Positions 1-13,416 of a DNA stretch of 13,416 nucleotides are shown piece by piece. Location: positions 1 to 13,416 of the forward strand of contig PKZK01000043.1 in NCBI GenBank assembly GCA_003133025.1, given 5' to 3'. This DNA is from Vulcanimicrobiota bacterium (GTDB taxonomy: Bacteria; Vulcanimicrobiota; Vulcanimicrobiia; Vulcanimicrobiales; Vulcanimicrobiaceae). The position numbers were made by a program, and so were the translations under genes. The notes under the pieces are model-generated. The model saw nothing but the letters and a program-made list of their open reading frames with translations. It did not search any database and was not told where the DNA came from. Every line of letters begins with the position of its first letter. The first letter of the stretch is position 1.

Positions 1-431
1 CGGTCGGCGAGCTTGATGATGATGACCCTGATGTCCTTGGCCATCGCCATGAACATCTTGCGCAGATTCTCGACCTGCGCGTCTTCTTTCGACTGATAGG
101 GGATCCGGGTCAGCTTGGTGACGCCCTCGACCAATTGCGCGATCTCGGGACCGTACTTCTCGGCGACCTCCTCGCTCGTAACGACCGTGTCCTCGACCAC
201 GTCGTGGAGGATGGCGGCGGCGATCGTCGCGGTGTCCATCTCCATGTCGGCCAGGATGCGGGCGACGGCGAGGGGATGCTCGATATAGGACTCGCCCGAG
301 GCGCGCTGTTGGCCTTCGTGGGCGGCATCCGCGAGTTCGTACACGCCACGAAGCCAGGCGGGATCCAGGGTCGGGTCGTACGACCGGACCTTCTGGATGA
401 GATCCTCGGCGAGCGGGATGGTGTGGGACAT
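1..431 (-). CDS. relA: RelA/SpoT family (p)ppGpp synthetase/hydrolase, 5' part; runs off the window start and is not in the ORF track
   Basis: Manual translation from ATG 431: MSHTIPLAEDLIQKVRSYDP...AAHEGQQRASGESYIEHPLAVARILADMEMDTATIAAAILHDVVEDT...VEGVTKL...ENLRKMFMAMAKDIRVIIIKLADR. Classic long-RSH N-terminal HD hydrolase domain with intact HD motif; lies downstream of apt. Confidence 0.97.
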   Translation of the reverse strand, partial: MSHTIPLAEDLIQKVRSYDPTLDPAWLRGVYELADAAHEGQQRASGESYIEHPLAVARILADMEMDTATIAAAILHDVVEDTVVTSEEVAEKYGPEIAQLVEGVTKLTRIPYQSKEDAQVENLRKMFMAMAKDIRVIIIKLAD

Positions 432-446
432 AAGTGTAGTTTGCCT

Positions 447-475
447 ATCATGCCATAGACGCCCAGGGGTGTCCA
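447..475 (-). promoter_or_regulatory. Putative sigma70-type promoter for relA
   Basis: Minus strand TGGACA (475-470), 17-bp spacer ending in TGG (extended -10 TGn), CATGAT (452-447); 15 nt upstream of the ATG. Confidence 0.55.
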
Positions 476-500
476 CCGCATGGCGGGTCCTTACGAAAAC

Positions 501-1019
501 TCAATACTGGATGAACGCCGTGACCTCGTGACCCAGTTCCTCGAGCGACTTCCGGCCGTTCAAAAAGCTCAATTCGACCAGGAAGGCAAAGCCGACGATG
601 TCCGCGCCGAGCCGGTCGAGCAGCCGCGCCGTCGCGCCGGCCGTGCCGCCGGTCGCCAAAAGGTCGTCGACGACCAGCGTCTTGGCGCCCTTGCCCACCG
701 CATCGGCATGGATCTCGAGCGAGTTCGTCCCGTATTCGAGTTCGTATTCCTCGCGGAACGTCGTCGCCGGCAACTTGCCCGGCTTGCGCACGGGCACGAA
801 CCCGGCGCCCAGGTGATAGGCCAGCGGAGCGCCCAGCATGTACCCGCGGGCCTCGATGGCCACGACGTGCTCGATGCCCCGGTCCTTGAAACGCTCGACG
901 AAGAGATCGATCGTGGCCTTGAAGCCGGCCGGGTCGCCGAGCAGCGGCGTGATGTCGCGAAAGAGTATTCCGGGGATCGGAAAGTCCGGAATGGCCCGGA
1001 TCAGAGACTCGAGTTGCAG
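501..1019 (-). CDS. apt: Adenine phosphoribosyltransferase (~172 aa), probable CTG start
   Basis: [49 protein letters not shown]-binding [16 protein letters not shown] at 1032-1028 lies 8 nt before CTG 1019. Alternative in-frame starts are TTG 1085 and ATG 1091. Confidence 0.96.
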
Positions 1020-1148
1020 CGGCCCACCCTCCAGTTGAGAAAACGACCTGCGCTTCGGGCAAAGCCCGGGCGCACCTCCGGGCAAGGCCATTCCTCTGTC
1101 CGGGCGAACGTTAGCGGTAATGTAAGCTCCGCCAGAAAGGGAGAGCTC

Positions 1149-1448
1149 ATGTCCAAACGGACAGCTATCGCCGCGCTCGCTGCGGCCTTGGTTGCGGGCG
1201 CGTTCGCGCCGGCCCCGGCGCGCGCCAACGTCGTGGTCAACGCCGAGAACGCCGTGGTCGGAACCGTGCACCACATCGGCACCGCCATCGGCAGCATCGG
1301 GAAGAAGAAATCGAATCCCGAGCGCGAGGAATCGACGCAGCGTCAGAACGCGTACAAGACCTGGTTCCACAAGAAGTACGGCTATAACCCGACCTCGGAG
1401 CAGGTCCACGAGTGGTACGTGCGCAGTTACGGCGTCGATCCGGCCTAA
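1149..1448 (+). CDS. Small secreted hypothetical protein (99 aa) with two W-[FY]-x3-YG-x2-P repeats
   Basis: AAAGGGAGA SD before ATG 1149; Sec-type signal [27 protein letters not shown]-terminal part of ORF 480..1448. Confidence 0.85.
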
Positions 1449-1486
1449 GCGCGCCCGAAGCAAACGATCGCGACTACGGGCGCCGC

Positions 1487-2239
1487 ATGGCGCTCGCATT
1501 CGTTGCCGCCGCGGGCCTGCATGCGCTCGCGCTGGGCTTCATCCCGCGCGCGTCGCAGCGGCCCGAAGCGACGGCCGGAGGCGAGATCGTGACGGTCGCA
1601 TTCCGCCCCAAGCCGCCGCCCACGCCCACGCCGACGGCGACGCCCGCGCCTAGGCCCACGCCGAAGCAAACGCTGCGCACCGCCGCGCTCGCGCGTCCGC
1701 CCACCATACGACGGAGCATCGGCGCGGTAGCCGCGGCACCGGCACCGCACCGCCCGCTCGCGGCCGCGCGAAGCGTCGTCCCGATCCACGCGGCGCAGCC
1801 GGGCGCGGCGAAGAGCGCCGCAGCGGAAGGCAGCGGCGGAAGCGCGGCCGAGGGATCGGCCGGAGACGGCAGTGCATCCGGAGCCGCCAGTGCATCCGCA
1901 GCTGGAACCGCCGCGCCGGCACCGTGCGGCGTCGTGATCGTCACGGAACTGGCCACGCGCTATCGGCCCGACGGCAGCCATACCGCGACCATACGTCTCG
2001 AGGTCACCCTCAGCGACGGCAGCGTCGTCGCCGACGATCTCGGCTGGCCGTTCGTCTACGCCCACGACTCCGACGACCCGTTTACGCCCGCCGGCAAAGC
2101 CGACCAAACGCCCATTCTGCTACAGCCGCCTCCGCCCGGTTACGATCTCGCGGCGCAGCAGCCCGCGACCGTCTTCGCGGTACGGCACACCGATGCGCAA
2201 GGCTATACCGACCTGACCGATTGTCCGCCCCGGGAATGA
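1487..2239 (+). CDS. TonB/TolA-like single-pass membrane protein with Pro/Ala-rich linker and atypical C-terminal domain
   Basis: N-terminal hydrophobic helix ending ..[28 protein letters not shown] linker, Gly/Ser/Ala spacer, ~105-aa globular C-terminus bounded by two Cys. Start uncertain (frame open from 1412). Confidence 0.7.
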
Positions 2240-2273
2240 AAGAAGGCGCCGCCGCACCCGGTGACGCCTTCTT
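2240..2273. terminator. Bidirectional hairpin between convergent genes
   Basis: AAGAAGGCG (2240-2248) and CGCCTTCTT (2265-2273) form a perfect inverted repeat with further inner pairing; sits between stops at 2239 (+) and 2294 (-). Confidence 0.7.
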
Positions 2274-2293
2274 CAGCCTCTCGAGAGACGGAT

Positions 2294-2569
2294 TTACATC
2301 GAGCCCTTCCGGCAATAGGCCGCGACCTTGGTGCCGTCTTTCTTCGTGTACCCCTTGACGAGGGTCTGGCCCGACGGACACTTCGTGACGGCTTTGGACA
2401 TCGACATGGGCGGCTTGGCGGTCGACTTGGTCATGGGCTTGGCAGTCGACATCATCATGGCTTTGCCGGTCGACATGGCGGCGGGCGTGGCCATCGGATC
2501 GGCGGAGACAGCTCCACCGAGTGCGAGCGCGAACGCGAGCGCCGCGCAAGCGGAAATGAGACGTTGCAT
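2294..2569 (-). CDS. Small secreted Met/Lys-rich protein (91 aa) with C-terminal C..VKGYTKKDGTKVAAYC motif
   Basis: GGAGGT SD 9 nt before ATG; signal peptide MQRLISACAALAFALALGGAVSA; 9 Met in the 68-aa mature chain. Confidence 0.85.
   Translation of the reverse strand: MQRLISACAALAFALALGGAVSADPMATPAAMSTGKAMMMSTAKPMTKSTAKPPMSMSKAVTKCPSGQTLVKGYTKKDGTKVAAYCRKGSM
2405..2476 (-). repeat. Three degenerate 24-bp in-frame tandem repeats (MSTGKAMM / MSTAKPMT / KSTAKPPM)
   Basis: atgtcgaccggcaaagccatgatg / atgtcgactgccaagcccatgacc / aagtcgaccgccaagccgcccatg read on the minus strand. Confidence 0.75.
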
Positions 2570-2646
2570 AGGAAGAATACCTCCGGAAGTAAGGCGGAAG
2601 CGTTCTACCTTCGCCGCGCGGTCGCGCTGACCCCTAAGCGGGCGAT

Positions 2647-3447
2647 TCAGCCGACTGTTTCGTGCGCGATGCCCAAGGTCTCGATCCAGGCCAGGCTCGC
2701 GCGGGTGGTGCTCGAGGGTTTGTATTCGAGTCCGACCCAGCCGTCGTAACCGATCGCATCGAAGAAGGGCAGTATTCTGCCGTAATCGAGTTCGCCGGTT
2801 CCCGGCTCGTGCCGCGCGGGGCTATCGGCGATCTGCACGTGTCCGATGATGTCGAGATTGGCTTGCACGGTCGCCATGATGTTGCCCTCGGCGCGCTGCG
2901 CGTGATAGCAATCGTACTGCAACCGGAAATTCGGCCGGCCCACGAGCGCGAGCAACACCAGCGCCTCGGCCGAGGTGCCGATGAAGAACCCGGGCGTCTC
3001 GATGCGGTTGAGCGGTTCGACGAGCAAGGTTATGCCGGCCGTGCGCAGTGCGTCGGCTGCGAAGCGGAGGTTGGCCACGAGCGTGCTCTGCTGCACGTCG
3101 CGCGCGATATCCGGAATCGCTTTGCCCACCAGACAGTTGACCCGCGTGCAGCCCAATTCGGTCGCGATGCGTGCCGCGTCGGTAACGCCGCGTTTGAATT
3201 CCTCGACCCGGCCGGGATCGACCGCGAATCCACGTTCCCCGGCTGCAAAATCGCCCGCGGGCAGGTTGAACAGTACCTGTTCGACGCCCAGTGCGCGTAA
3301 TTGCGCGCGCCGCGCGCCGATCTCCTGATCGTAGGGAGACATGTACTCGACCCCGCGAAAGCCGGCAGCCGCAGCGGCGGCCACGCGTTCCTCGATGGTC
3401 GCAAACTCGCCGAAGAGAAACGACAAGTTGGCGGAGAGTTTAGGCAC
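2647..3447 (-). CDS. hyi: Hydroxypyruvate isomerase family protein (xylose-isomerase-like TIM barrel)
   Basis: MPKLSANLSFLF, AGFRGVE, LFNLPAGDFAAGERG, LLVEPLN, LQYDCYHAQRAEGN, HVQIADSPARHEPGTGELDY, GWVGLEY. Confidence 0.92.
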   Translation of the reverse strand: MPKLSANLSFLFGEFATIEERVAAAAAAGFRGVEYMSPYDQEIGARRAQLRALGVEQVLFNLPAGDFAAGERGFAVDPGRVEEFKRGVTDAARIATELGCTRVNCLVGKAIPDIARDVQQSTLVANLRFAADALRTAGITLLVEPLNRIETPGFFIGTSAEALVLLALVGRPNFRLQYDCYHAQRAEGNIMATVQANLDIIGHVQIADSPARHEPGTGELDYGRILPFFDAIGYDGWVGLEYKPSSTTRASLAWIETLGIAHETVG

Positions 3448-3515
3448 GCGCGGCCTCGACTGTCTTCATCGCTTTCCGGCTTTGACGCGGTCGGCGTGAT
3501 TCCGCCTCGAGCGAC

Positions 3516-4250
3516 TCACGGCCCGAGCGCCCGCAGCGCGGCCGCAAACGCCTCGGGCCGCAAGAGCGCCACGCCGTGTCCGACGCCCGGCACGACGATC
3601 GCGCGGCCGTGCGCCGCGGCCGCGGCGAAGCGCTTCGTCTGCCAGACGATGGGCACGTCGCGCGATCCGTTGACGAAGGTCACCGGCGCGCGGATCGCGC
3701 GCACGTCGGCAAGCGTATCGTGCCCGAGCAGCGCGCGCAGGGTCGCGCCGCGCATCCCGACGTTGAGCCCGCGCGCGACGATCGCGTCGCCGATGTCGGC
3801 GCCGGCCTCGCGGCGAAGCACGCCCGCGAAGAACCGGGCGGCGGCGCGTTCGCCGTCGAGCGCGGCCAAGGCATCGGCGGCGAGCGTGAGCCGCGCGGCC
3901 GCGCCGGTGAGCCCGCGCAAGGCATAGGTGCAGCCGCCCGCGACCACGCCGAGCAACGGCACGTCGAGGCGGCCGCCAACCGCGAGGGCGAGATAACCGC
4001 CGAGCGAATCGCCCGCCAGCAGCAGCGGTCCGCGCGCCGCGTGAGCCGTCGCACGCGCGATCAATTCGGCGATGACGGGTTCGAGTGCGAAACGCTCCGC
4101 GCGCCGCGCACCGTGACCCGGTAAATCCGGTGCGTCGACGTGCATTGCATCGCCCAACGCTCGCTGCACGCCGAGCCACGCCGCGCCGTTGGCAACCGCT
4201 CCGTGAAGCGCGAGAACCGTCACGCGAGGTGACGAAAGGTAAACGCGCAC
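3516..4250 (-). CDS. Alpha/beta fold hydrolase
   Basis: LALHG oxyanion loop, APDLPGHG, nucleophile GDSLGG, acid VNGSRD, His in GVGHG. Start GTG 4250 or GTG 4223. Confidence 0.88.
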   Translation of the reverse strand: MRVYLSSPRVTVLALHGAVANGAAWLGVQRALGDAMHVDAPDLPGHGARRAERFALEPVIAELIARATAHAARGPLLLAGDSLGGYLALAVGGRLDVPLLGVVAGGCTYALRGLTGAAARLTLAADALAALDGERAAARFFAGVLRREAGADIGDAIVARGLNVGMRGATLRALLGHDTLADVRAIRAPVTFVNGSRDVPIVWQTKRFAAAAAHGRAIVVPGVGHGVALLRPEAFAAALRALGP

Positions 4251-4306
4251 GCCATGGGAAGAGGTTACGCCGTTCGCCTCTCAACCCCGGCTATTGGAGG
4301 GTCGTC

Positions 4307-5326
4307 ATGGACGTTTCCGTCAAGCGGTTGGGCACATTGCTCACCGTCGCGCTGCTGGCCGGATGCTCCGGCCTCTCGCAGCCCGCGACGACCGGGAGCA
4401 CTTCGGCGCAATCGAGCCTGCATAGCGCCTTCGAATCCGTTCGCGCCGCCGACCGTTTCGGGATCGACGCCGGCGCGCGTAGCGCGCGCATGGCCTCGCG
4501 CGGCGCGGGCTACGGACCGGCCAAGAAAAGCGCGCAGACCCTGTTCGTCTCCGACCTCTCCGCGAGCGCGATTCGGCTCTATCCGGCCAACGTCAAAAAT
4601 CCGAAGCAGACGGGTGAGATCACGCAAGGCATCGACCTGCCGGTGAATATCGCGGTCGACCAGTCGGGTACGCTCTATGTCGCCAACAACGGCAACAGCA
4701 CGGTCACCGAATATCCGCTCGGGCAGACGACGCCGAGCGTGACCTTGACCAATTCGCTCGTCTATCCCAACGGCATCGCGGTCGATTCCGCCGGTACGGT
4801 GTACGTCACGAGCGGCTCCTCCGTCGGCGATACCTACGTCCTCGAATTTCCCAAGGGCGCGACGTCGCCGAGCGTGCAGGTCGACGGCTTCGGCCTCGCC
4901 ATCGGACTGGCAATCGACAAGGCCGGCAACCTCTACGTCGGCGACGCGCACACCAACGAAGTCTTCGAAGTAGCGAAGGGCACGACCAAACCCGTCGATC
5001 TGGCACTCACGGAACTCGCCGATCCGACGGGCGTGGCGATCAGCCCGAAGGACGACCTCTACGTGTCGAACGAAAGTCCGAGCGCGTTTGCCGTACACGG
5101 TTACAAGCTGGGCCAAACGACGCCGTTCGTCACCATCACCGACGGCACGGACGGGCCGTATGCGATCGGCTTCTCCGCATCGGGTACGCTGTTCGTGGGC
5201 AACGGATACAAACAGCCCGGGAACGTGACCGCCTACAAAAAGAACGCGACGGCGCCGTACGAGACGATCTCCGGTGAGATCGAGAATCCGGTCGGCATCG
5301 GCGTCTATCCGGGTAACGGGTTCTAA
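4307..5326 (+). CDS. NHL-repeat six-bladed beta-propeller lipoprotein (339 aa)
   Basis: GGAGG SD before ATG 4307; lipobox LAGC; repeats PVNIAVDQSGTLYVAN, PNGIAVDSAGTVYVTS, AIGLAIDKAGNLYVGD, PTGVAISPKDDLYVSN, PYAIGFSASGTLFVGN, PVGIGVYP. Confidence 0.88.
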   Translation: MDVSVKRLGTLLTVALLAGCSGLSQPATTGSTSAQSSLHSAFESVRAADRFGIDAGARSARMASRGAGYGPAKKSAQTLFVSDLSASAIRLYPANVKNPKQTGEITQGIDLPVNIAVDQSGTLYVANNGNSTVTEYPLGQTTPSVTLTNSLVYPNGIAVDSAGTVYVTSGSSVGDTYVLEFPKGATSPSVQVDGFGLAIGLAIDKAGNLYVGDAHTNEVFEVAKGTTKPVDLALTELADPTGVAISPKDDLYVSNESPSAFAVHGYKLGQTTPFVTITDGTDGPYAIGFSASGTLFVGNGYKQPGNVTAYKKNATAPYETISGEIENPVGIGVYPGNGF

Positions 5327-5342
5327 CGGCAACCCGAAGAGC

Positions 5343-5819
5343 ATGAAGCGCACCGTCGTCACCTTCAAGACGGCGATGCCGATCGAGGCGACGATGGACT
5401 TCGAGCGCGAGTACGAGCCGGAGTTACGCCTCGACCTGGAAGAGAAAAAGGCGCTCGTCGCGGCGGGATACGCGGTTTGGATGTTCGTCGACGGCGCGCT
5501 CGCCGGCGAGACCTACGCGGTGTCGCCCACAGCCGTCGGCGATGAGATCGACGACATCGATGCCATCCATCCGCTCATGCTGTACTGCTATTCCACGACG
5601 ATTCTCGGGCCGTTTCGCGGACGGGGCTTAGCGAAGGTCCTCGTCGCGTATTCCCTCGGCCAGCTGAGGCAGGCCGGATACACCACGATCGTCGGTCACG
5701 CCACGAGCCCGGCGATGGTGCACGTGCGCGCCTCGTTCGGCGCCCGGTTCGGCCCCGTGCACGAAGGCTGGTTCGGCACGCGCCGCGTCGCGCGCTTTTA
5801 CCGCATCGACCTGGAGTAA
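5343..5819 (+). CDS. GNAT family N-acetyltransferase (158 aa)
   Basis: Acetyl-CoA-binding motif A ..STTILGPFRGRGLAKVL; typical GNAT size; 16 bp downstream of the NHL gene. Confidence 0.8.
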   Translation: MKRTVVTFKTAMPIEATMDFEREYEPELRLDLEEKKALVAAGYAVWMFVDGALAGETYAVSPTAVGDEIDDIDAIHPLMLYCYSTTILGPFRGRGLAKVLVAYSLGQLRQAGYTTIVGHATSPAMVHVRASFGARFGPVHEGWFGTRRVARFYRIDLE

Positions 5820-5820
5820 A

Positions 5821-6522
5821 CTACTTTAGAAAGTCGATGACTCCGGTGTGGAAGCGGTACTCGGCTGCGACGACCTTGCAGTCGCCGCTCGCGATCGCCG
5901 GACCGAGCACCGGCGAGGCCTTCAACTTCTCGGCCTGCGCGCGTACGTTGGCAACGACGGCTTCTTGCTTCGAGCCCTTCGCCGCAACGACCGAAGCGAT
6001 GCCCGGGGCGATTGCGTGCTGCAGCACGTCGAGGTTGGGCGGCAACGGCTTGTTCTCGGCGACGGCGTCGTAGGTTGCGGCGATCGCTCCGCACGACTCG
6101 TGTCCCAACACGACGATCAGCTTGACCCCGAGCGCACCGTAGCCGTACTCCAGCGTTCCGAGCACGTTGTCGGAGACGAAGTTGCCCGCGTCGCGGAAGA
6201 CGAACAGATCGCCGACGTTCTGATCGAAAACGAGTTCGGGCGGCACGCGCGAGTCCGAACAGGAGAGGATCGTCGCGAACGGAGCCTGATGTCCGGTGAG
6301 CGCGAGGCGGCGTTCGGTCACGCCGTCTTGATTGCTCAGCGTTCCGGCCACGAACCGTTTGTTGCCCGCGACCAGCCGGGCCAGGGCCTCGGCCGGCGGC
6401 ACGCTGGTCGCGGCAGGCGCGGCCGCGATTGCGGGCAGCCGGCCCAGCGAAAGCGAGGCGGCCGCGCCGGCAGCGAGCCGCAACGCGGCGGAACGGGAGA
6501 GGCTTCGGTCGACGTGCGGCAT
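5821..6522 (-). CDS. Beta-class carbonic anhydrase with N-terminal export leader (233 aa)
   Basis: ALARLVAGNKRF, Zn ligands CSDSRV and HESCG, GDLFVFRDAGN, GTLEYG; leader LSRSAALRLAAGAAASL...AIA; AGGGG before ATG 6522. Confidence 0.93.
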   Translation of the reverse strand: MPHVDRSLSRSAALRLAAGAAASLSLGRLPAIAAAPAATSVPPAEALARLVAGNKRFVAGTLSNQDGVTERRLALTGHQAPFATILSCSDSRVPPELVFDQNVGDLFVFRDAGNFVSDNVLGTLEYGYGALGVKLIVVLGHESCGAIAATYDAVAENKPLPPNLDVLQHAIAPGIASVVAAKGSKQEAVVANVRAQAEKLKASPVLGPAIASGDCKVVAAEYRFHTGVIDFLK

Positions 6523-6583
6523 GCGCCCCTGTTCTGCAATGAGGGCATGCCTATCCTTGCCTGCCAGGCTACGGGAGCAAACC

Positions 6584-7120
6584 TCAGGCGGGGGTGGGAT
6601 CGCGTTCCAGCGCTGCGTATTCGCGCTCCATCGCGCCGCTCTCGATGTAGCGGCGCGAACGCATTGCGAGATGTTCGAAAGCGCGGCCGGTGTGCGGCCC
6701 GAAGGCGATGCGACGTTCGATGATGGCAGGCCGCATTTGCTCCCAAATCGCCACGAACGTATCGGCATACTCGGCTAAGACCAGGGCTTCCGCGACGCCG
6801 CCCTTCGTGATCAAGACCGAGATGTGTTCCAGGAACCCCAGGAGCATCGCCACCTCGAGGAACTCGGCCGGGCGGAATTGGGGATCCCGCAGGCGTTCCC
6901 GATAAGCCGGATCGCTTTGCACCTTCTGCGCGATCACCGCGAGGCTCGCCCGCGCCTCCACGGTGGCCGGCGAATCCAACCGGTCGATGATCCGCAAATA
7001 GACGACGATGTCGTTGGCATTGCGGTTGTGGCGAAGCTGCCTGAAGGCGGCGATCGCCGTGACGGCCACGATGAACGCCGAGGCCAGCGATGCGATGGCG
7101 GCGACCCAACCTGAATCCAT
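6584..7120 (-). CDS. DUF4760-like membrane-anchored helical protein (178 aa)
   Basis: GAGGA SD; N-terminal TM followed by AFRQLR; LGFLEHISVLITKGGV, W..M.P.I..RR and AFEHLA match the DUF4760 pattern as recalled (not searched). Confidence 0.65.
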   Translation of the reverse strand: MDSGWVAAIASLASAFIVAVTAIAAFRQLRHNRNANDIVVYLRIIDRLDSPATVEARASLAVIAQKVQSDPAYRERLRDPQFRPAEFLEVAMLLGFLEHISVLITKGGVAEALVLAEYADTFVAIWEQMRPAIIERRIAFGPHTGRAFEHLAMRSRRYIESGAMEREYAALERDPTPA

Positions 7121-7244
7121 CTTGCTTCCTCTCACCGCTCGGCGCAAGAGACCTGCTCGGCGCCTCCGGATTCTGCGCCTCGGCCCTTGTCGCCGGCGCG
7201 CAGCGCGTGATGTACCCGTCGACTCTTCACCAGCGGAGGCGCGG

Positions 7245-8474
7245 ATGGTCGGCACTCGTTCGCTCGAGGGTGCGCAACGCACGCTCGAGTTCGGCATCTA
7301 TCGCGACGGCGACAACAACCTCGACGACATTCAGTCCGGCGTGATCGCACAGGCACGGGCGGTCAGCGCTCGCAACCCGGGCATCGAATTTCTCGTCGAA
7401 GACACGACGGCTCGCCGCGGCTTTGCGCCGCGTCACGTGCTGCGCACGGAATCCTACGCCATCGCGGAGGGCGAGCTCTCGCGACGCATCGAGGTCGGGC
7501 CGCCGCACGACATGTCCGACGGCAAGACGCTGGCAAACTTCGTGCGACGCACGCTCGACCGGGCGCAGGCCAACGGCGCGCAGCAGACCTGGATCGAACT
7601 CGTCGACCACGGCGCGGGCGACGGCGGCGGCCTCGAGGCCGACCACGGCAACGGCATCATGCGCGAAGACGACATGGCCCGCGCGATTGCCGCCGGCGTG
7701 GCCGCACACGCCCGCGCGCACCCCGAAGACGCAAGCCGCCGCGTCGACGGCGTGCTCGCCAACGAGTGCCTCATGGGTTCGCTCGGTAATGTGTCGGCAC
7801 TCTCGCACGCCGGCGTGCGTTTCTTCGCGGCGTCGCCGGAGACCATGCTCGCGCCGGGTGCGCCCACGAGCGTCGCCGATGCCATCGAGCGACATCTCGA
7901 CGAGCCCAAAGCGATGGCGAAATCGATCGTGGAACGCGTGATGCGCACGCGCTACGAATTGGGCGACGGCGAACGTTTCGGGCCCGCGGCCGCCTTCGAC
8001 GTCTTCGATCTCGCTCCGGAGAAGGTTCGCGCGATGGAGCGCGGCGTGCGCAACCTCGATGCGGCGCTCGGCAACGCCGCGCAGGATCGCGCGCTGCGCG
8101 ACGCGATTCGGCAAGACGCACGCGGCGTGGAGGGCATGGTGCGCTTCCGGCACAACGGCGGACTGCCCTGGCGCGCCGATCGCCCGGCGATCGCACTCTA
8201 CGATGCGCTGGCCCGCGACGGCAGATTACCCGAAAGCGTGCGCGAGCCCGCGCGCGTCGCCCGCGATGCGGTGGCGGATCTCGTGCTCGCACATCGCGAG
8301 AGCGACGGCTTCGAGCCCTTCGACGGCGCCGACTACTCCGACGCGAGCGGTCCCACGGTGCATTTCCCGATCACCAAGCGACAGATCGATGCATGGGCGC
8401 CCGACGTCTCGGAGACCGATAACGCCTTTTACGCGAAGACGGGAGCCGCCGACCTGACGCGTCGCCTCACCTGA
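7245..8474 (+). CDS. Clostripain-related cysteine peptidase (MEROPS C11, clan CD), ~409 aa
   Basis: GGAGG 5 nt before ATG 7245; IYRDGDNNL, catalytic His in VDHGAG (7608-7610), catalytic Cys in ANECLMG (7767-7769), FAASPE; order and spacing as in C11. Confidence 0.8.
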   Translation: MVGTRSLEGAQRTLEFGIYRDGDNNLDDIQSGVIAQARAVSARNPGIEFLVEDTTARRGFAPRHVLRTESYAIAEGELSRRIEVGPPHDMSDGKTLANFVRRTLDRAQANGAQQTWIELVDHGAGDGGGLEADHGNGIMREDDMARAIAAGVAAHARAHPEDASRRVDGVLANECLMGSLGNVSALSHAGVRFFAASPETMLAPGAPTSVADAIERHLDEPKAMAKSIVERVMRTRYELGDGERFGPAAAFDVFDLAPEKVRAMERGVRNLDAALGNAAQDRALRDAIRQDARGVEGMVRFRHNGGLPWRADRPAIALYDALARDGRLPESVREPARVARDAVADLVLAHRESDGFEPFDGADYSDASGPTVHFPITKRQIDAWAPDVSETDNAFYAKTGAADLTRRLT

Positions 8475-8497
8475 GCGTCGCGGCGCGGGCTCGCCGG

Positions 8498-8893
8498 TTA
8501 ATCGGGCGGCAGGGTGAGCGCGACCGAGCGCTCGACCTCGGTGCCGGTCGAATCGATGCCGTAGACGGTGAGGTCGATTTCTCCGGCGTGATAGGCGGGG
8601 ATGTCGACGGTGACCACCTGCCGTTCGGAGATCGAACCGGGATCCACGTCGGAGGCGCCGTCGACCAGATTCGCCTTGAGTTTCTTTCCGTCGAACGTAA
8701 ATGCGAGGGAACGGCTGACCAGCGTAAACGGCTCTTCCGAGCTATTTTTAACCGTCACGTCCAGGATCAGTTGACGCACGCCCGCGGCGAGGTCTTCGCC
8801 GTCGTAACCCGCGTAGGCGAGACGAGCCGACACCACCGTGAACTCCTGGTCTCCCGCCGCCAAAGGCGGAGGTGCGGTCACCTTCAGATCCAT
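8498..8893 (-). CDS. Hypothetical beta-rich protein (131 aa), possibly DUF4352/Ig-like fold
   Basis: Alternating beta patterns LILDVTVKNSSEEPFTL, DVDPGS...VVTVDIP; acidic; fills the gap between the protease and the helicase. Confidence 0.6.
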   Translation of the reverse strand: MDLKVTAPPPLAAGDQEFTVVSARLAYAGYDGEDLAAGVRQLILDVTVKNSSEEPFTLVSRSLAFTFDGKKLKANLVDGASDVDPGSISERQVVTVDIPAYHAGEIDLTVYGIDSTGTEVERSVALTLPPD

Positions 8894-8910: not shown

Positions 8911-8938
8911 AGAAGAAACCAGCCCCTCCAGAGAGGCT
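8911..8938 (-). terminator. Possible intrinsic terminator after the helicase
   Basis: Minus strand AGCCTCT-CTGG-AGGGGCT hairpin followed by GGTTTCTTCT, starting 6 nt after the stop; the U-tract is weak. Confidence 0.4.
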
Positions 8939-8944
8939 CGGAGC

Positions 8945-11014
8945 CTACCGCTCCAAGGGGACGGAGTTGGGATAAATCGGCCGGTTTATGATCTGTTCGA
9001 GCGAGGCTGCGTCCGCCTCGAGCGCCAGCGCACAGAATTTCTCGAAGTCCTCGCGCTCGGCGAGACCCTCTTCGTAGCGAGCGGTCGTCGTGAGATCGAC
9101 CTTCGAGCCCACGTCGAGAAAGCGCACGAAACGTCCGTCGTCGTCGCGACCGGTATCGACGAGGCCGGCTTCCTGCCAGATGCGCACTGCGGTCGAAACC
9201 GTTTCCCCCTTGACCATGTCGAGATCGAGCGTACGCGCCACGTCCTCGTGCGTCATGCGCAGGGTATCGGCCGAGGCGAGCGCGCGCATTCCGCGGTAGA
9301 GTTCGCGCAACGTCGCGATCGACGGCGCCGACTGCGCGATAATGAAATCGTTGATGCGCCGGTCGGCCTCGCCGTAGAGCAGGTGAATGCGCGCGGGCAA
9401 GCCGTCGCGACCGGCACGGCCCGCCTGTTGATTGAACTCCGTCAATGCGAAGTTGAGATGGTAGAGCACCACGTCGCGCACGTCGGGTAAGTCGATGCCC
9501 TCGCCGAACGCCGAGGTCGCCACCACCAAACGCAGCGCGCCGGCGCGAAAGAGATCCTCCAGTTGCGCGCGCTCGCGGGCGGGCACGCCCGCGTGATAGA
9601 AGCCGACGTTGTCGCCGAAGCGCCGGCGCAAGCGCTCGGCCAGCTTCGTGGCCTCGCTGCGCGAGTTGCAATAGACGATCGCCTTCCCGTCGCCGTCGAG
9701 TTCGCGTTCGAGGTAGCGTTGCTTATCGGCACCCCGCGCGTCGATCACGCGCAGGTTGTCGCGTACGGTCGGATCGATCACCCAGCGCTCGATGCGCAAA
9801 GCCGCGCGGATTTCGGCGAAGGCCGCTTTGTCGGCGGTCGCCGTCAAGGCCAGCACCTGCGGGCGTCCGAGCGCGTCGAGCAGCGTGCCGAATTCCATGT
9901 AGGCCGGCCGATGACGCGACTCGAGGAGATGATGGGCCTCGTCGACGACGACGAGCGCGGGCACGTTGCACGCGCGCGCGAATGCGGCCTTGTGATAGGT
10001 GGCGAACTCGGGCGTGGCGAGCACCACGTCCCACGAGCCGTCCTCGAGCGCGAGGTCGAGTTCGGCGCGTTCGTCGCCGTCGATCGAACCGTTGGCGCGA
10101 AGCACGCGCAAACCGAGCGGCGCGAGCCGCCGCTCGAGCGCCGCATGTTGATCGTTGGCCAGCGCGCGCAACGGATAGAAGACCAGCGTCTTGCGTCGCT
10201 CGCGCAAAGCGCGATCCGCCGCGGGCAATTGGAAGCAGAACGACTTGCCGCGGCCCGTGCCGAGCACGGCCAGACAGTTATCGCCTTCGGCCACGCGTTC
10301 GAGCACGGCGCGTTGCGAGTCGCGAATCGGTTTATCGCCGATCAACGCGTGGCGGATCCGCTCGACCGGCGAATCGTGTTCGAGCAACCCGAGCGCGGCG
10401 CTCTCGCCCGCGGACCGTCGCGAGGGCGGCAACGTACTGCGCCGGCGGCGCACGTGAATGTTGACGCCGACGTGTTTCTCGCCGCCCCCGGTGACGTCGG
10501 CGACGACGGCGCTATACCGGTCGCCTTCATCGATCTTGGGCGCGATGCGCTTGGCGATCTCGCGGCGGATGAAGCCCACCTGCAGGCTGCCGTAACGTAC
10601 CTCGATCGCGTTGGGATCGGCCTCGTTGTGCGGATCGCGGACCAGTTCGAGTTGCGCGCCCGCGCTCAGGCCGCCGGCCACCGACTGACGAAGGCCGAAC
10701 GAAACGCCCACCACCTTCGTATGGAAGTCGTCGGCGTCGCCGATCCTTGCGTAGGGGTCGCGCGCGAGAAACTCGTCACGCCGGGCAAACAACGCCTCGA
10801 CGAATTCCGACGCTGAGTCGACGGCCGCGCCGGACTCCGCTTCGGCCGCGACGGTATCGACTCGCGGCGGCAGCGGCGCGTCGTCGTCGAGGTCGTCGAA
10901 GCGCGCCAAAAGCGCCTCGAAGGCCGCCTCCGACGCGGTCGGCGGCGGCAGGCCCCGATCCGCGGGCTTACTCGGGCTTCGCGGCCGCCCCGTGCTCGTC
11001 CGCGCTCTTCGCAT
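8945..11014 (-). CDS. HIRAN-domain RecQ-like SF2 DEAH-box helicase with probable RecJ-type C-terminal domain
   Basis: HIRAN FHTKVVGVSF..LELVRDPHNEADPNAIEV..QVGFI; motifs GTGRGKS, YPLRALANDQ, ATPE, DEAHH, LTATA, VYCNSR, YHAG, ATSAFGEGID, QQAGRAGRDG. Start uncertain: ATG 11014 overlaps secF by 47 bp; CTG 10951 or TTG 10909 are alternatives. Confidence 0.9.
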   Translation of the reverse strand: MRRARTSTGRPRSPSKPADRGLPPPTASEAAFEALLARFDDLDDDAPLPPRVDTVAAEAESGAAVDSASEFVEALFARRDEFLARDPYARIGDADDFHTKVVGVSFGLRQSVAGGLSAGAQLELVRDPHNEADPNAIEVRYGSLQVGFIRREIAKRIAPKIDEGDRYSAVVADVTGGGEKHVGVNIHVRRRRSTLPPSRRSAGESAALGLLEHDSPVERIRHALIGDKPIRDSQRAVLERVAEGDNCLAVLGTGRGKSFCFQLPAADRALRERRKTLVFYPLRALANDQHAALERRLAPLGLRVLRANGSIDGDERAELDLALEDGSWDVVLATPEFATYHKAAFARACNVPALVVVDEAHHLLESRHRPAYMEFGTLLDALGRPQVLALTATADKAAFAEIRAALRIERWVIDPTVRDNLRVIDARGADKQRYLERELDGDGKAIVYCNSRSEATKLAERLRRRFGDNVGFYHAGVPARERAQLEDLFRAGALRLVVATSAFGEGIDLPDVRDVVLYHLNFALTEFNQQAGRAGRDGLPARIHLLYGEADRRINDFIIAQSAPSIATLRELYRGMRALASADTLRMTHEDVARTLDLDMVKGETVSTAVRIWQEAGLVDTGRDDDGRFVRFLDVGSKVDLTTTARYEEGLAEREDFEKFCALALEADAASLEQIINRPIYPNSVPLER

Positions 11015-12341
11015 CGTGGCCGACGGCCGCTTCGTGCGCGGCGAATTCTTGCGCGATCGGATGATCCTCGAGATTCAAGACGATCTCTTCGTGACCGAGT
11101 TCCAACTGCTCGTCGTGCAGGCCCGCGCGCTGCGCGTCGAGCGGATCGATCTCCTCGTGCCCGTACTCGAGCACGTCTTCATCGTATTCGGTGTACTCGG
11201 GCTCCGCGACGGCCGTACCGGCCGGGGGCGCGACCCGCTTGCGCTTGTAACGCGCGGGGCCCGTCGTGCGCGCGGGCACGCTCTTCTTCTCGGAACGGCG
11301 CTCGCGACGCGCGGCCAGGATTGCCGCACGTTCGGCGGCGTCCTTCTCCTGGGCGCGAGCTTCGGCAACGCTCTTGGGCGCGCGCAGGCCGCCGCTCGCA
11401 CGCAGTTCCTCACGCTTCTTCGCAGCGTCCTTGAGCTGGCGATCGCGCATCACCGCGACCAGCGGAGCCGAGTAGAAGATCGAGTGGTAGCCGCCGGAGC
11501 AGATGCCCACGAGCAGCGCGAAGGCGAAATTCTGCAGCGAGGCGCCGCCGAAGGCCAAGAGCGCCACGAGCGTGACCACCACGGTCGCGAGCGTGTTGAC
11601 CGAGCGCGACATCGTCTGCAGGATCGAGGTGTTGACGATCGCGTCGTACGACTGCCCCGGCATCAGCCTGACGTTCTCGCGGATGCGGTCGAGGATGACG
11701 ATCGTGTCCATGACCGAGTACCCGATGACGGTCAGCACGGCTGCGAGGAAGGCGTCGTCGGCGCGCTTTTGCGCCAGCGCGTAGATGCCGATCATCATCG
11801 CCGCGTCGCGCAAGAGCGCGATGACCGTGACCAGGCCGAAGATGTAGTTCCAGCCGAAGCGGAAGGCGATGTAGCCGAACTGGATGCCGATGGCGATGAC
11901 CAAGGCTTCGAGCGCTTTGATCAGATACTCGTGCGAAAGCGACGGTCCGACGGCTTCGATCGACGACTGCGTGCGGTCGATCGTGCCCGCCGTGGCCAGC
12001 GCGTTCCAGATCTTGCTGGTCTGATCGCCGAAGTCGACCTGCGTCGAAATCGTAAAGCGTTCGTTGGCGTCGTCGCCGGCCTTGGTCAAGGTGTTGACCT
12101 GGGCGTCGGTGACGTTGACCGTGGCCAGCGCGGCACGCACCGCATCGGCCGTGGTGGGCGCCTTGTATTTGACCGTCACGTCGGTGCCGCCGGTGAACGA
12201 CAAACCGAGCTTGATCGGATAGTGGTGCACGACCAGGTTGTAGGCGATCATCAGCGCGCCCGCGATGATGATCGCGTACGAGATCGCCGAGACGGTCTTG
12301 AACCAGCCGACGACGTTCCAATTCAGGCGACGGAAAAACAT
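10968..12341 (-). CDS. secF: Protein translocase subunit SecF with long charged C-terminal extension
   Basis: LGLSFTGGT, EAVGPSL, YIAFRF, AAVLTVIGYSVMDTIVILDRIREN, SILQTMSRSVNT; immediately downstream of secD. Confidence 0.96.
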   Translation of the reverse strand: MFFRRLNWNVVGWFKTVSAISYAIIIAGALMIAYNLVVHHYPIKLGLSFTGGTDVTVKYKAPTTADAVRAALATVNVTDAQVNTLTKAGDDANERFTISTQVDFGDQTSKIWNALATAGTIDRTQSSIEAVGPSLSHEYLIKALEALVIAIGIQFGYIAFRFGWNYIFGLVTVIALLRDAAMMIGIYALAQKRADDAFLAAVLTVIGYSVMDTIVILDRIRENVRLMPGQSYDAIVNTSILQTMSRSVNTLATVVVTLVALLAFGGASLQNFAFALLVGICSGGYHSIFYSAPLVAVMRDRQLKDAAKKREELRASGGLRAPKSVAEARAQEKDAAERAAILAARRERRSEKKSVPARTTGPARYKRKRVAPPAGTAVAEPEYTEYDEDVLEYGHEEIDPLDAQRAGLHDEQLELGHEEIVLNLEDHPIAQEFAAHEAAVGHDAKSADEHGAAAKPE

Positions 12342-12345
12342 CGCG

Positions 12346-13416
12346 CTACGCTCCGTACGCCCGGTGATCGGTGACCAGATCGTTGTCGACCACGACGTCG
12401 ACGAAGAACCGGGTCACGAAGACGGCGGTGACGAGCGAGAACAGCGTGCCCCAGAAGAGCGTGTAGGCGAAGCCTTTGACGGTGCCCGTGCCGAGCACGA
12501 ACAGCACGCCCGCGCCCACGATGGTGGTCACGTGGCTATCGAAGACTGCCGTGAAGGCGCGCTTGAAGCCGATTTGCACGGCCGCGCGCAGCGTCTTGCC
12601 CGACCACAACTCTTCCTTGATGCGTTCGAAGATCAGAACGTTGGCATCGACGGCCATGCCGATCGAGAGCACGAACCCGGCGATGCCGGGGAGCGTCAGC
12701 ACGGCTTTGACGCCGGCGAGCAGCCCGAGCAGCATGAGCACGTAGAGAATCAGCGCGATGTCGGCCAGGAACCCCGGCAGGCGATAGACGGCGACCATGA
12801 AGATCAGCACGAGGCCCAGCCCGATCATGGAGGCCCAAAGCGACTTTTCGAGATCGATCTTGCCCAGGATCGGCCCGACCGTGTCGTTTTCGACGACGGT
12901 GACGCCCACGGGCAATGCGCCGGCGTTGAGTTCGTTGGCGACGCGAATCACTTCGTCTTCGGTGAACTGTCCGGTGATCTGACCTTCGGTCGTGATCACG
13001 CCCTGAATCGTGGCCGCCGACACGTACTTCTTATCGAGGAAGATCGCCAGCAACTTGTTGAGGTTGTCGGTCGTGACCTTACCGAATTTGCCGCCGTCTT
13101 TGGTTTGGAAATCGATCTTCGGGTTGCCGCTCTGATCGAAGCCCGCCTGCGCGCCCTTGAGGTCGGCGCCGGAGTAGACGATGGGTCCGGCATCCTTGTA
13201 CGCGCCGTTCGGATCGTCGGCATACTTCTTATCCGTGAGCGCCTTCTGATTGACCGCAGCCGGAATGATCTTGAAGTCGAGCTTCGCAACGTCTTTGAGC
13301 GTCTGCACCGCTTCATCGGGGTTTTTGACGTTGGGCAACTCGACCAGGATGCGGCTGTCGCCGACCGGCTCGATCTGCGGCTCCGAGACGCCCAAGCCGT
13401 TCACGCGATTGGAAAC
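12346..13416 (-). CDS. secD: Protein translocase subunit SecD, 5' end outside the window
   Basis: NRVNGLGVSEP, RILVELP, LNAGALP, VGPILG, LTLPGIAGFVLSIGMAVDANVLIFERIKEE, GTGTVKGFA; frame open to the window end. Confidence 0.97.
   Translation of the reverse strand, partial: VSNRVNGLGVSEPQIEPVGDSRILVELPNVKNPDEAVQTLKDVAKLDFKIIPAAVNQKALTDKKYADDPNGAYKDAGPIVYSGADLKGAQAGFDQSGNPKIDFQTKDGGKFGKVTTDNLNKLLAIFLDKKYVSAATIQGVITTEGQITGQFTEDEVIRVANELNAGALPVGVTVVENDTVGPILGKIDLEKSLWASMIGLGLVLIFMVAVYRLPGFLADIALILYVLMLLGLLAGVKAVLTLPGIAGFVLSIGMAVDANVLIFERIKEELWSGKTLRAAVQIGFKRAFTAVFDSHVTTIVGAGVLFVLGTGTVKGFAYTLFWGTLFSLVTAVFVTRFFVDVVVDNDLVTDHRAYGA

Follow-up and report, generated by a model that had tools for sequence, protein, structure and literature searches.

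A nuclease-free HIRAN-RecQ-like helicase in the recJ position of Vulcanimicrobiaceae, likely derived from a RecJ-helicase fusion

RecQ is described as a 3'-5' helicase that lets the nuclease RecJ resect blunt or 3'-tailed DNA ends (PMC4846377), and the RecJ of Deinococcus radiodurans as ending in a tail that binds HerA and the C-terminus of SSB (PMC4663267, PMC4846377). In the HIRAN domain of HLTF, residue D94 is the one that binds the 3'-OH, the last bases being stacked by Y72 and Y93 (PMC5773155). Bacterial HIRAN domains, according to a remark in PMC4666394, can be fused to phosphoesterases or nucleases: the architecture discussed below may therefore already be mentioned in Iyer et al. 2006. 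The gene reported here, at positions 8945..11014 (minus strand) of a 13,416 nt stretch of Vulcanimicrobiota DNA (assembly GCA_003133025.1, contig PKZK01000043.1), indicated throughout as the window, codes for a HIRAN domain, a RecQ-like helicase motor and a winged helix in a single chain, and occupies the position of recJ.

The gene is likely to be the HIRAN-helicase-winged-helix half of a RecJ-helicase fusion, to have lost the nuclease half by deletion, and to act as a 3'-5' repair helicase that senses 3' ends and cooperates with another nuclease. The helicase half is kept intact in a family of uncultured soil bacteria, Vulcanimicrobiaceae, in which no RecJ nuclease was detected. The gene is real, and is a RecQ-like helicase variant, likely derived from an apparently unstudied RecJ fusion: in a literature search, covering mostly open-access papers, no title or abstract opening describes either the window protein or the fusion.

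Architecture of the helicase and of its full-length relatives

The protein is 689 aa long when read from the first ATG; its true start is uncertain, and conserved sequence begins at codon 22. The architecture is directly seen in a Pfam scan, which reports HIRAN at aa 97-175 (E 2e-11; nt 10726-10490), DEAD at 232-396 and Helicase_C at 431-538, and no match at E<=1 for RecQ_Zn_bind (PF16124), RQC, HRDC (PF00570), DHH, DHHA1 and RecJ_OB. From the N-terminus, all on the minus strand, the protein features a family-specific motif (aa 22-40; 10895..10951), composed of a proline-rich stretch and an amphipathic helix; a helical linker (aa 58-95; 10730..10843); the HIRAN domain in its full extent (aa 97-191; 10442..10726); the RecA-like domain 1 (9827..10321), with Walker A (10261-10241), motif Ia, DEAH (9943-9932) and motif III; the RecA-like domain 2 (9401..9724), with motifs IV, V (9517-9497) and VI (9430-9401); and a winged helix followed by a helical tail (aa 555-689; 8948..9352). 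The motor motifs GTGRGKS, YPLRAL, DEAH, TATA, TSAFGEG and QxxGRxxRD are all intact, and each is conserved across the 120 closest relatives, with 119-120 of them having it. In this set no protein features a Cys4 zinc pattern, and 111 contain one Cys within the last 140 aa. An earlier note, made from the sequence alone, had described a HIRAN domain and a complete SF2 DEAH core, lacking the Cys4 zinc site and HRDC of RecQ as well as any DHH or DHHA1 motif: both the Pfam scan of the window reading frame and the motif check on relatives agree with it.

The HIRAN domain is homologous to that of HLTF (E 0.005). D133 is invariant and aligned with HLTF D94; F106 is, from the alignment register, the probable equivalent of Y72, and the position of Y93 is occupied by His, Phe or Tyr in 105 of 118 relatives. 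The motor is closest, by sequence and fold, to RecQ4, WRN and RecQ (the whole-protein structure model was built on the cluster representative P0001, which differs from the window protein in 3 residues), and the best NCBIfam model is recQ (TIGR01389), with 204.5 bits, below the equivalog cut-off of 640.2. This match, together with that of PADLOC DpdF models to the motor core, could point to an ordinary RecQ paralogue, a defence helicase of the DpdF/PsyrT type or a decaying pseudogene. Such an origin is highly improbable: the family groups with the fusions, apart from RecQ, on a branch with support 100, no zinc, RQC or HRDC domain is found, and the gene is single-copy and near-universal in the family, in a fixed housekeeping position after secF. 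Purifying selection, furthermore, acts on every domain (pN/pS 0.35-0.48, with synonymous sites near saturation), and the N-terminal motif is the most constrained segment measured (pN/pS 0.30).

The first 21 codons, in contrast with the conserved sequence that follows, evolve neutrally (pN/pS 1.00), and are probably not part of the conserved protein, as judged from their substitution pattern. In 38 family loci the helicase starts at variable places, near or within the tail of secF, and in 5 of the 38 no ATG, GTG or TTG is present in the 40 codons upstream of the conserved motif. Leu22 was considered as a start codon and rejected, as the codon varies among loci (CTG 12, CTC 10, TTG 6, CTT 5, others 5). 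MAFFT aligns the motif at aa 22-40 with the RecJ helix preceding the DHH domain, of which it might be a remnant, but no more than 14 of 119 fusions rank this site first. The secF junction is crossed, with 5 differences and no gap, by X12 (9470-11625), a contig of a public sequencing run that possibly comes from the source sample.

The full-length counterparts of the gene were found by searching for longer relatives. The best 120 of 1888 are all 1140-1270 aa long and share the order DHH-DHHA1-RecJ OB-HIRAN-DEAD-Helicase_C; 119 of them cover 99-100% of aa 97-689, with 37-46% identity, and an unfiltered search agrees. The window protein matches, directly and collinearly, residues ~570-1210 of these ~1200-aa RecJ-HIRAN-helicase fusions, which lie in the secDF-recJ-relA locus of Bacillota and Coriobacteriia. 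In the alignment, homology begins at the helix following the OB domain: the linker at 10730..10843, which in the fusions comes directly after RecJ OB, marks the break point. The earlier proposal of a reduced half of a RecJ-HIRAN-helicase fusion is thus borne out by the finding of complete fusions, collinear over their C-terminal half.

The link to the recJ locus also holds for the homologs. Full fusions, with the nuclease motif in frame, make up 21 of the 80 GTDB loci; 3 non-family loci are cut by contig ends, and 56 have no nuclease. The 21 fusion loci, mostly adjoining secDF and/or relA, belong to Bacillota (15), Actinomycetota (4), Chloroflexota (1) and Peptococcia (1); the taxa include Thermincola, Peptococcaceae, Clostridia, Coriobacteriia, Collinsella and one Chloroflexota. 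Some fusions have a decayed motor (P0356, P0357, P0363, P0366), and others have no HIRAN match (P0297, P0300, P0316, P0326, P0335, P0351). Other phylum labels are borne by 7 of the 56 nuclease-less loci: L158, L172, L176, L184, L193, L209 and L211, as well as proteins such as P0059, carry the gene of the family under the labels Acidobacteriota, Pseudomonadota or Armatimonadota. The seven loci are probably mislabelled bins, because they share the same gene order and the three placed in the tree nest within the family.

The C-terminal tail and the RecJ C-terminal domain

The last 135 aa are predicted to fold into a winged helix with further helices behind it. A structural comparison of this tail with 48,161 solved chains ranks Staphylococcus aureus RecJ first (8Y30, residues 645-756; Z 10.3, rmsd 5.2, 109 aligned residues), followed by a chain with Z 7.9 and 65 aligned residues; no publication for structure 8Y30 was found in the literature search. 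RecQ chains are not among the top 50 structural matches and RQC (PF09382) matches none of 35 family rows; a remote kinship to RQC is possible all the same. The RecJ-C fold accounts for the whole tail, and no HRDC is matched in the protein. PF10141 does not match the tail directly (0/35 family rows, 0/5 genomes), but homology to it is supported by the structural match and by two profile comparisons. The tail profile aligns with residues 1064-1197 of the fusion P0127 (HHalign 97.9%), where PF10141 scores over its cut-off, and on 41 genomes outside the family it matches only three places, each at the end of an ordinary RecJ frame. Foldseek on the tail gives only weak MarR-type matches, and a sequence search of the tail profile against PDB gives nothing relevant.

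Ordinary RecJ proteins were then compared with the helicase. From the 20 best RecJ loci of other families, the stretch following the OB domain was excised (103-439 aa), and the 19 tails longer than 150 aa were aligned. Their alignment with the helicase begins where RecA2 begins and continues to the end of the protein (HHalign 99.7%, E 4e-26, 248 columns), a result repeated on 14 tails. The half preceding the winged helix, analyzed without the four 439-aa rows, matches RecA2 alone with 98.2% (E 3e-14), versus 73.7% for the RecA2 of canonical RecQ. Its 24 controls stay low: no score exceeds 0.5% for RecA1, HIRAN, the winged helix or the DHH domain, nor 1.2% for 20 column shuffles. The RecA-like domain 2 of the window protein and the first, dead half of ordinary RecJ tails are homologous. 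A recognisable RecA1 (95.4%) is also kept by the four 439-aa tails, found in the RecJs of loci L023, L025, L027 and L028 (family f12), which contain both RecA folds and no catalytic motifs. Neither DExH nor motif VI is present in any of the 19 tails, where the one loose Walker-like match falls in the winged-helix region.

The fusion profile is matched by 16 of the 19 tails at E<0.01, and PF10141 by 8 of 14 at E<=0.1. At the level of sequence, the RecJs of the sister lineages therefore carry at their ends a dead stretch of this helicase, which comes in three lengths and is directly detected in the alignments. The "RecJ C-terminal domain" is probably a helicase vestige, which would explain the tail found on many RecJ proteins. 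As the remnant profile touches S. aureus RecJ weakly (residues 607-735, E 0.18, fourth of 16 weak rows against PDB), the extension to Firmicutes stands on the fold of the tail and on PF10141; there, the RecA2 part is likely. The earlier note had read the end of the window protein as a RecJ C-terminal domain: the fold is indeed the same, with no RQC match in the family rows searched, but the direction is reversed, the domain being the helicase's own winged helix. For this same reason, the tail is not by itself proof of a lost nuclease.

Distribution, direction of change and possible function

The distribution was evaluated on 251 genomes of the phylum, the helicase gene being scored at E<1e-70 and RecJ by TIGR00644. 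Six genomes (G213, G238, G246, G248, G128, G233) are marked as unpublished: they are counted in the tallies and no conclusion depends on them, G248 having supplied a single row to the tail alignment and G128 a single SecF tail. By direct count, the helicase is fixed in Vulcanimicrobiaceae, being present in 159 of 160 genomes and, in the remaining one, as a copy cut by a contig end; it is found in none of 90 genomes of other families. The close relatives are 60-88% identical and labelled Eremiobacteraeota or Baltobacteraceae, many with the JGI name "single-stranded-DNA-specific exonuclease". RecJ, in turn, is found in none of the 160 Vulcanimicrobiaceae genomes, several of them single-contig, in none of the 3 and 18 genomes of two sister families of the class, nor in the 3 of family f11, and in all 66 genomes of the other 17 families. 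Families f2, f3 and f11 (for example G055, G041 and G008) thus include 24 genomes with neither RecJ nor the helicase found; HIRAN is present in 0 of 5 of their genomes.

The genome of the window (80% complete) also yields no RecJ, the nuclease halves of six fusions giving no match better than E 0.2. In five genomes examined (four single-contig), the only DHH gene codes for 330-360 aa, the size of NrnA, and RecJ OB (PF17768) is absent from all five. These counts bear on another suggestion of the earlier note, namely that the helicase pairs in trans with a RecJ lacking its C-terminal domain. RecQ and RecJ do cooperate as separate proteins in Escherichia coli and D. radiodurans (PMC4846377), but at the sensitivity of TIGR00644 and PF17768 the suggestion is refuted: only a very diverged RecJ could rescue it, and we regard such a pairing as extremely improbable.

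In trees, the family forms one side of a branch with support 97 (48 in a mixture-model quick tree); the trees argue against a recent transfer from Bacillota. The order of events is where a different history has to be weighed: the stand-alone helicase might be ancestral, adjoining recJ and fused to it elsewhere, so that the family would have lost a separate recJ and nothing would have been deleted from the gene, its function being much the same. RecQ-rooted trees, which place the family outside all the fusions (SH-aLRT 90 and 98), fit this history, as does a tail belonging to the helicase itself. The root is weak, because the outgroup is distant and was chosen for similarity to the query. Against this history, RecJ of sister lineages in the phylum is continued in frame by a motor remnant, fusions make up every one of the 21 complete GTDB loci outside the family, and the gene has no fixed start codon, with some loci lacking a common start nearby, as expected after loss of a 5' half. 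We therefore hold an ancestral stand-alone helicase to be unlikely. The trees do not show loss, and the case for a lost nuclease is one of parsimony and gene position, drawn from the fusions in outside phyla, the in-frame remnants in sister lineages, the position in the recJ locus and the unsettled 5' end. Taken together, these data indicate a reciprocal loss: Vulcanimicrobiaceae kept the motor, and the sister lineages kept the RecJ nuclease with a dead motor remnant. The ancestor of the phylum would have had the full fusion, of which the descendants kept opposite halves.

As for function, the two-protein resection step of RecQ and RecJ lets the fusion be read as that step in one chain. By analogy with HLTF, the HIRAN domain of the window protein would hold a free 3'-OH, and the motor, being of the RecQ type, would unwind DNA 3'-5' from the recognised 3' end. 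The winged helix may bind the duplex side and possibly SSB, a contact which the D. radiodurans RecJ tail, known to bind the SSB C-terminus, makes a reasonable guess. The 5' strand would be removed by a different enzyme, the best candidate being a gene pair coding for a PD-(D/E)XK nuclease and a UvrD-like protein. RecO is found in 4 of 4 near-complete family genomes, and was not found in the genome of the window; AddA is over its cut-off in 0 of 61 family genomes, and NurA is present in 0 of 5. The PD-(D/E)XK nuclease, searched with one query protein, is present in 180 of 181 genomes of the class and in 0 of 69 outside it, and is a candidate replacement, with its partner, for the RecJ nuclease. 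The pair is located at G000:C101:17561-21468 (L129:2561-6468; L130:2330-5691), adjoining ubiX: the nuclease features C-terminal cysteines, the UvrD-like protein is divergent, and the whole resembles a reduced AddAB/AdnAB.

A function mainly in fork reversal, as for HLTF/Rad5, would require no nuclease: HIRAN would capture the 3' end of the nascent leading strand, and the motor would regress the fork. This overlaps with a 3'-end-sensing repair helicase and is not exclusive of it. The homology of the HIRAN domain to that of HLTF, which needs HIRAN for fork reversal (PMC4666394), speaks for such a role, as does the retention of the gene in 160 of 160 family genomes, in none of which RecJ was found. 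The motor, however, is of the RecQ4, WRN and RecQ kind, and that of HLTF is a SWI/SNF double-strand translocase (PMC4666394); in most lineages the same module is joined to a 5'-3' nuclease, pointing to resection; and 6 of the 11 fusions scanned have lost HIRAN while keeping the motor. Fork reversal as the main function is thus possible, though a good deal less probable than a resection-related role for a helicase that lost its nuclease half.

Several observations weigh against the derivation and role that we favor. Both RecJ and the helicase are missing from the two sister families within the class (3 and 18 genomes), and the gene is therefore dispensable in close kin. The family carries one or two other RecQ-type helicases. 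The window HIRAN has Ala at the position of the stacking Tyr93 of HLTF. Besides the RecQ-rooted trees, which put the family outside the fusion clade, the tree including the remnants does not resolve its placement. The complementary distribution of the nuclease pair is a single phylogenetic event, seen with one query protein, and three RecJ-less f11 genomes lack the PD-(D/E)XK nuclease (one query). Finally, public RNA runs reach the gene only as short contigs.

Canonical RecQ is found in 40 of 61 family genomes, the helicase being kept more widely. When compared with the recQ model, a second RecQ-like gene of the window's genome (G000:C60:1653-3012; L002) gives two partial matches that lie in different frames, possibly because of a frameshift in this assembly; similar genes occur throughout the family.

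A broader scheme, to which we give an even chance, would regard the ancestral RecJ of Gram-positive-type lineages as a one-chain resection machine, made of nuclease, HIRAN and RecQ-like motor, and split both ways in one phylum. In most lineages the motor would have decayed in stages, from dead RecA1, RecA2 and winged helix to RecA2 and winged helix, and then to the winged helix only. In Vulcanimicrobiaceae only the motor would be left, resection having passed to the new PD-(D/E)XK pair. The domain at the C-terminus of RecJ of the Bacillus/Staphylococcus type would be a fossil helicase, and the window gene its living form, within a RecFOR pathway without RecJ.

The window gene offers a natural nuclease-free version of a widespread RecJ-helicase fusion, in which the motor and a bacterial HIRAN can be assayed alone. 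It also suggests, in a form that can be tested, where the RecJ C-terminal domain came from; D. radiodurans requires this domain in vivo (PMC4663267), and no explanation of its origin was met in the literature consulted. A whole bacterial class, moreover, keeps RecO and RecQ-type helicases, while searches for RecJ and canonical AddA found neither, so that the nuclease responsible for resection in these bacteria becomes a question of its own.

Genomic neighbourhood and comparison with known systems

The gene order is secD-secF-helicase, then apt-relA, all on the minus strand: secD (12346..13416) runs off the window and is the first gene of a likely operon; secF (10968..12341), directly upstream, overlaps the annotated helicase start by 47 nt; apt (501-1037) and relA (3-476, cut by the window end), together spanning 3..1037, are the downstream markers of the recJ locus. 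The assignment to the recJ slot of a secDF-recJ-apt-relA order, made in the earlier note, is confirmed, with about 8 kb of unrelated genes lying before apt. In all 43 family loci examined (38 genomes) secF is directly upstream, and of 38 loci 29 place the helicase in the +1 frame relative to it. A terminator-like hairpin lies just past the stop codon (8921..8938, minus strand); 3 such sites are found versus 4.3 expected, which is not significant alone. Within the window, no sigma-70-like promoter was found, and 22 matches to an SOS box pattern of the Firmicute type compare with 17.0 expected, none of them upstream of the gene, the operon start being outside the window.

The SecF C-terminal tail is, in this order, long and acidic, with a strongly conserved motif of ~27 aa shortly before the stop (11070-11150, minus strand). 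By eye, 37 of 38 family tails show the motif, as do 2 of 3 from f2 (the remaining one was misread), and it is not seen in f3 or other classes; it could be a docking motif or an arrest-type peptide, and is independent of the presence of the helicase. A SecF-helicase frameshift fusion, or a special docking link, was considered and rejected: in f3 a transporter gene is overlapped likewise, and f2 has the SecF tail motif without the helicase.

Between helicase and apt, the window contains a variable insert (1412-8893). It includes a DUF4352-like 131-aa gene and genes for DUF4760, carbonic anhydrase, GNAT, NHL beta-propeller, alpha/beta hydrolase and xylose-isomerase-like TIM barrel proteins, a small Met/Lys-rich protein with a signal-like N-terminus, and a Pro/Ala-rich protein without Pfam match. 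A 488-aa protein (7008-8474, plus strand), with no Pfam or NCBIfam match, is clostripain-like (Peptidase C11) by Atlas features (score 0.92); its gene is often convergent to the helicase within the family.

Among known systems, the closest are the fusions themselves, which carry no annotation other than "RecJ" (Thermincola ferriacetica P0145, Acetohalobium arabaticum P0126, Peptococcaceae, Coriobacteriia, Collinsella tanakaei). They share with the window protein the collinear order linker-HIRAN-RecA1-RecA2-winged helix, and with its gene the secDF ... apt/relA locus; the window protein lacks their ~570-aa DHH-DHHA1-OB nuclease, and features in its place the short family-specific N-terminal motif. 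RecJ proteins with a C-terminal domain (S. aureus 8Y30 and those with PF10141) share the fold of the tail, which in the window protein is attached to a live, motif-intact motor and not to a nuclease. Of the features of a RecJ, DHH, DHHA1 and OB are thus missing, and the PF10141 fold, by profile-profile and structure comparison, and the position in the recJ locus are present. With D. radiodurans RecJ the likeness is by type only, homology of the tail having been demonstrated for the S. aureus RecJ fold.

Canonical RecQ (E. coli, D. radiodurans; TIGR01389) is the closest characterised motor, with intact SF2 motifs and a winged helix after the core. Unlike it, the window protein has no zinc-binding subdomain or HRDC and no RQC match, has a shortened loop after motif II and a HIRAN domain at the N-terminus, and does not reach the cut-off of the family model; its genome also codes for a canonical RecQ, as a separate gene. 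The mycobacterial RqlH, as described in PMC3378886, is also a bacterial RecQ-like clade with its own accessory domains and no HRDC, but it keeps a Cys4 zinc domain, ends in a ComF/PRTase module, and has neither HIRAN nor a tie to recJ. HLTF/Rad5, lastly, likewise feature HIRAN before an SF2 motor, and the Asp binding the 3'-OH is kept in the window protein, which is, in contrast, bacterial, with a motor of the RecQ and not of the SWI/SNF type, and no RING domain.

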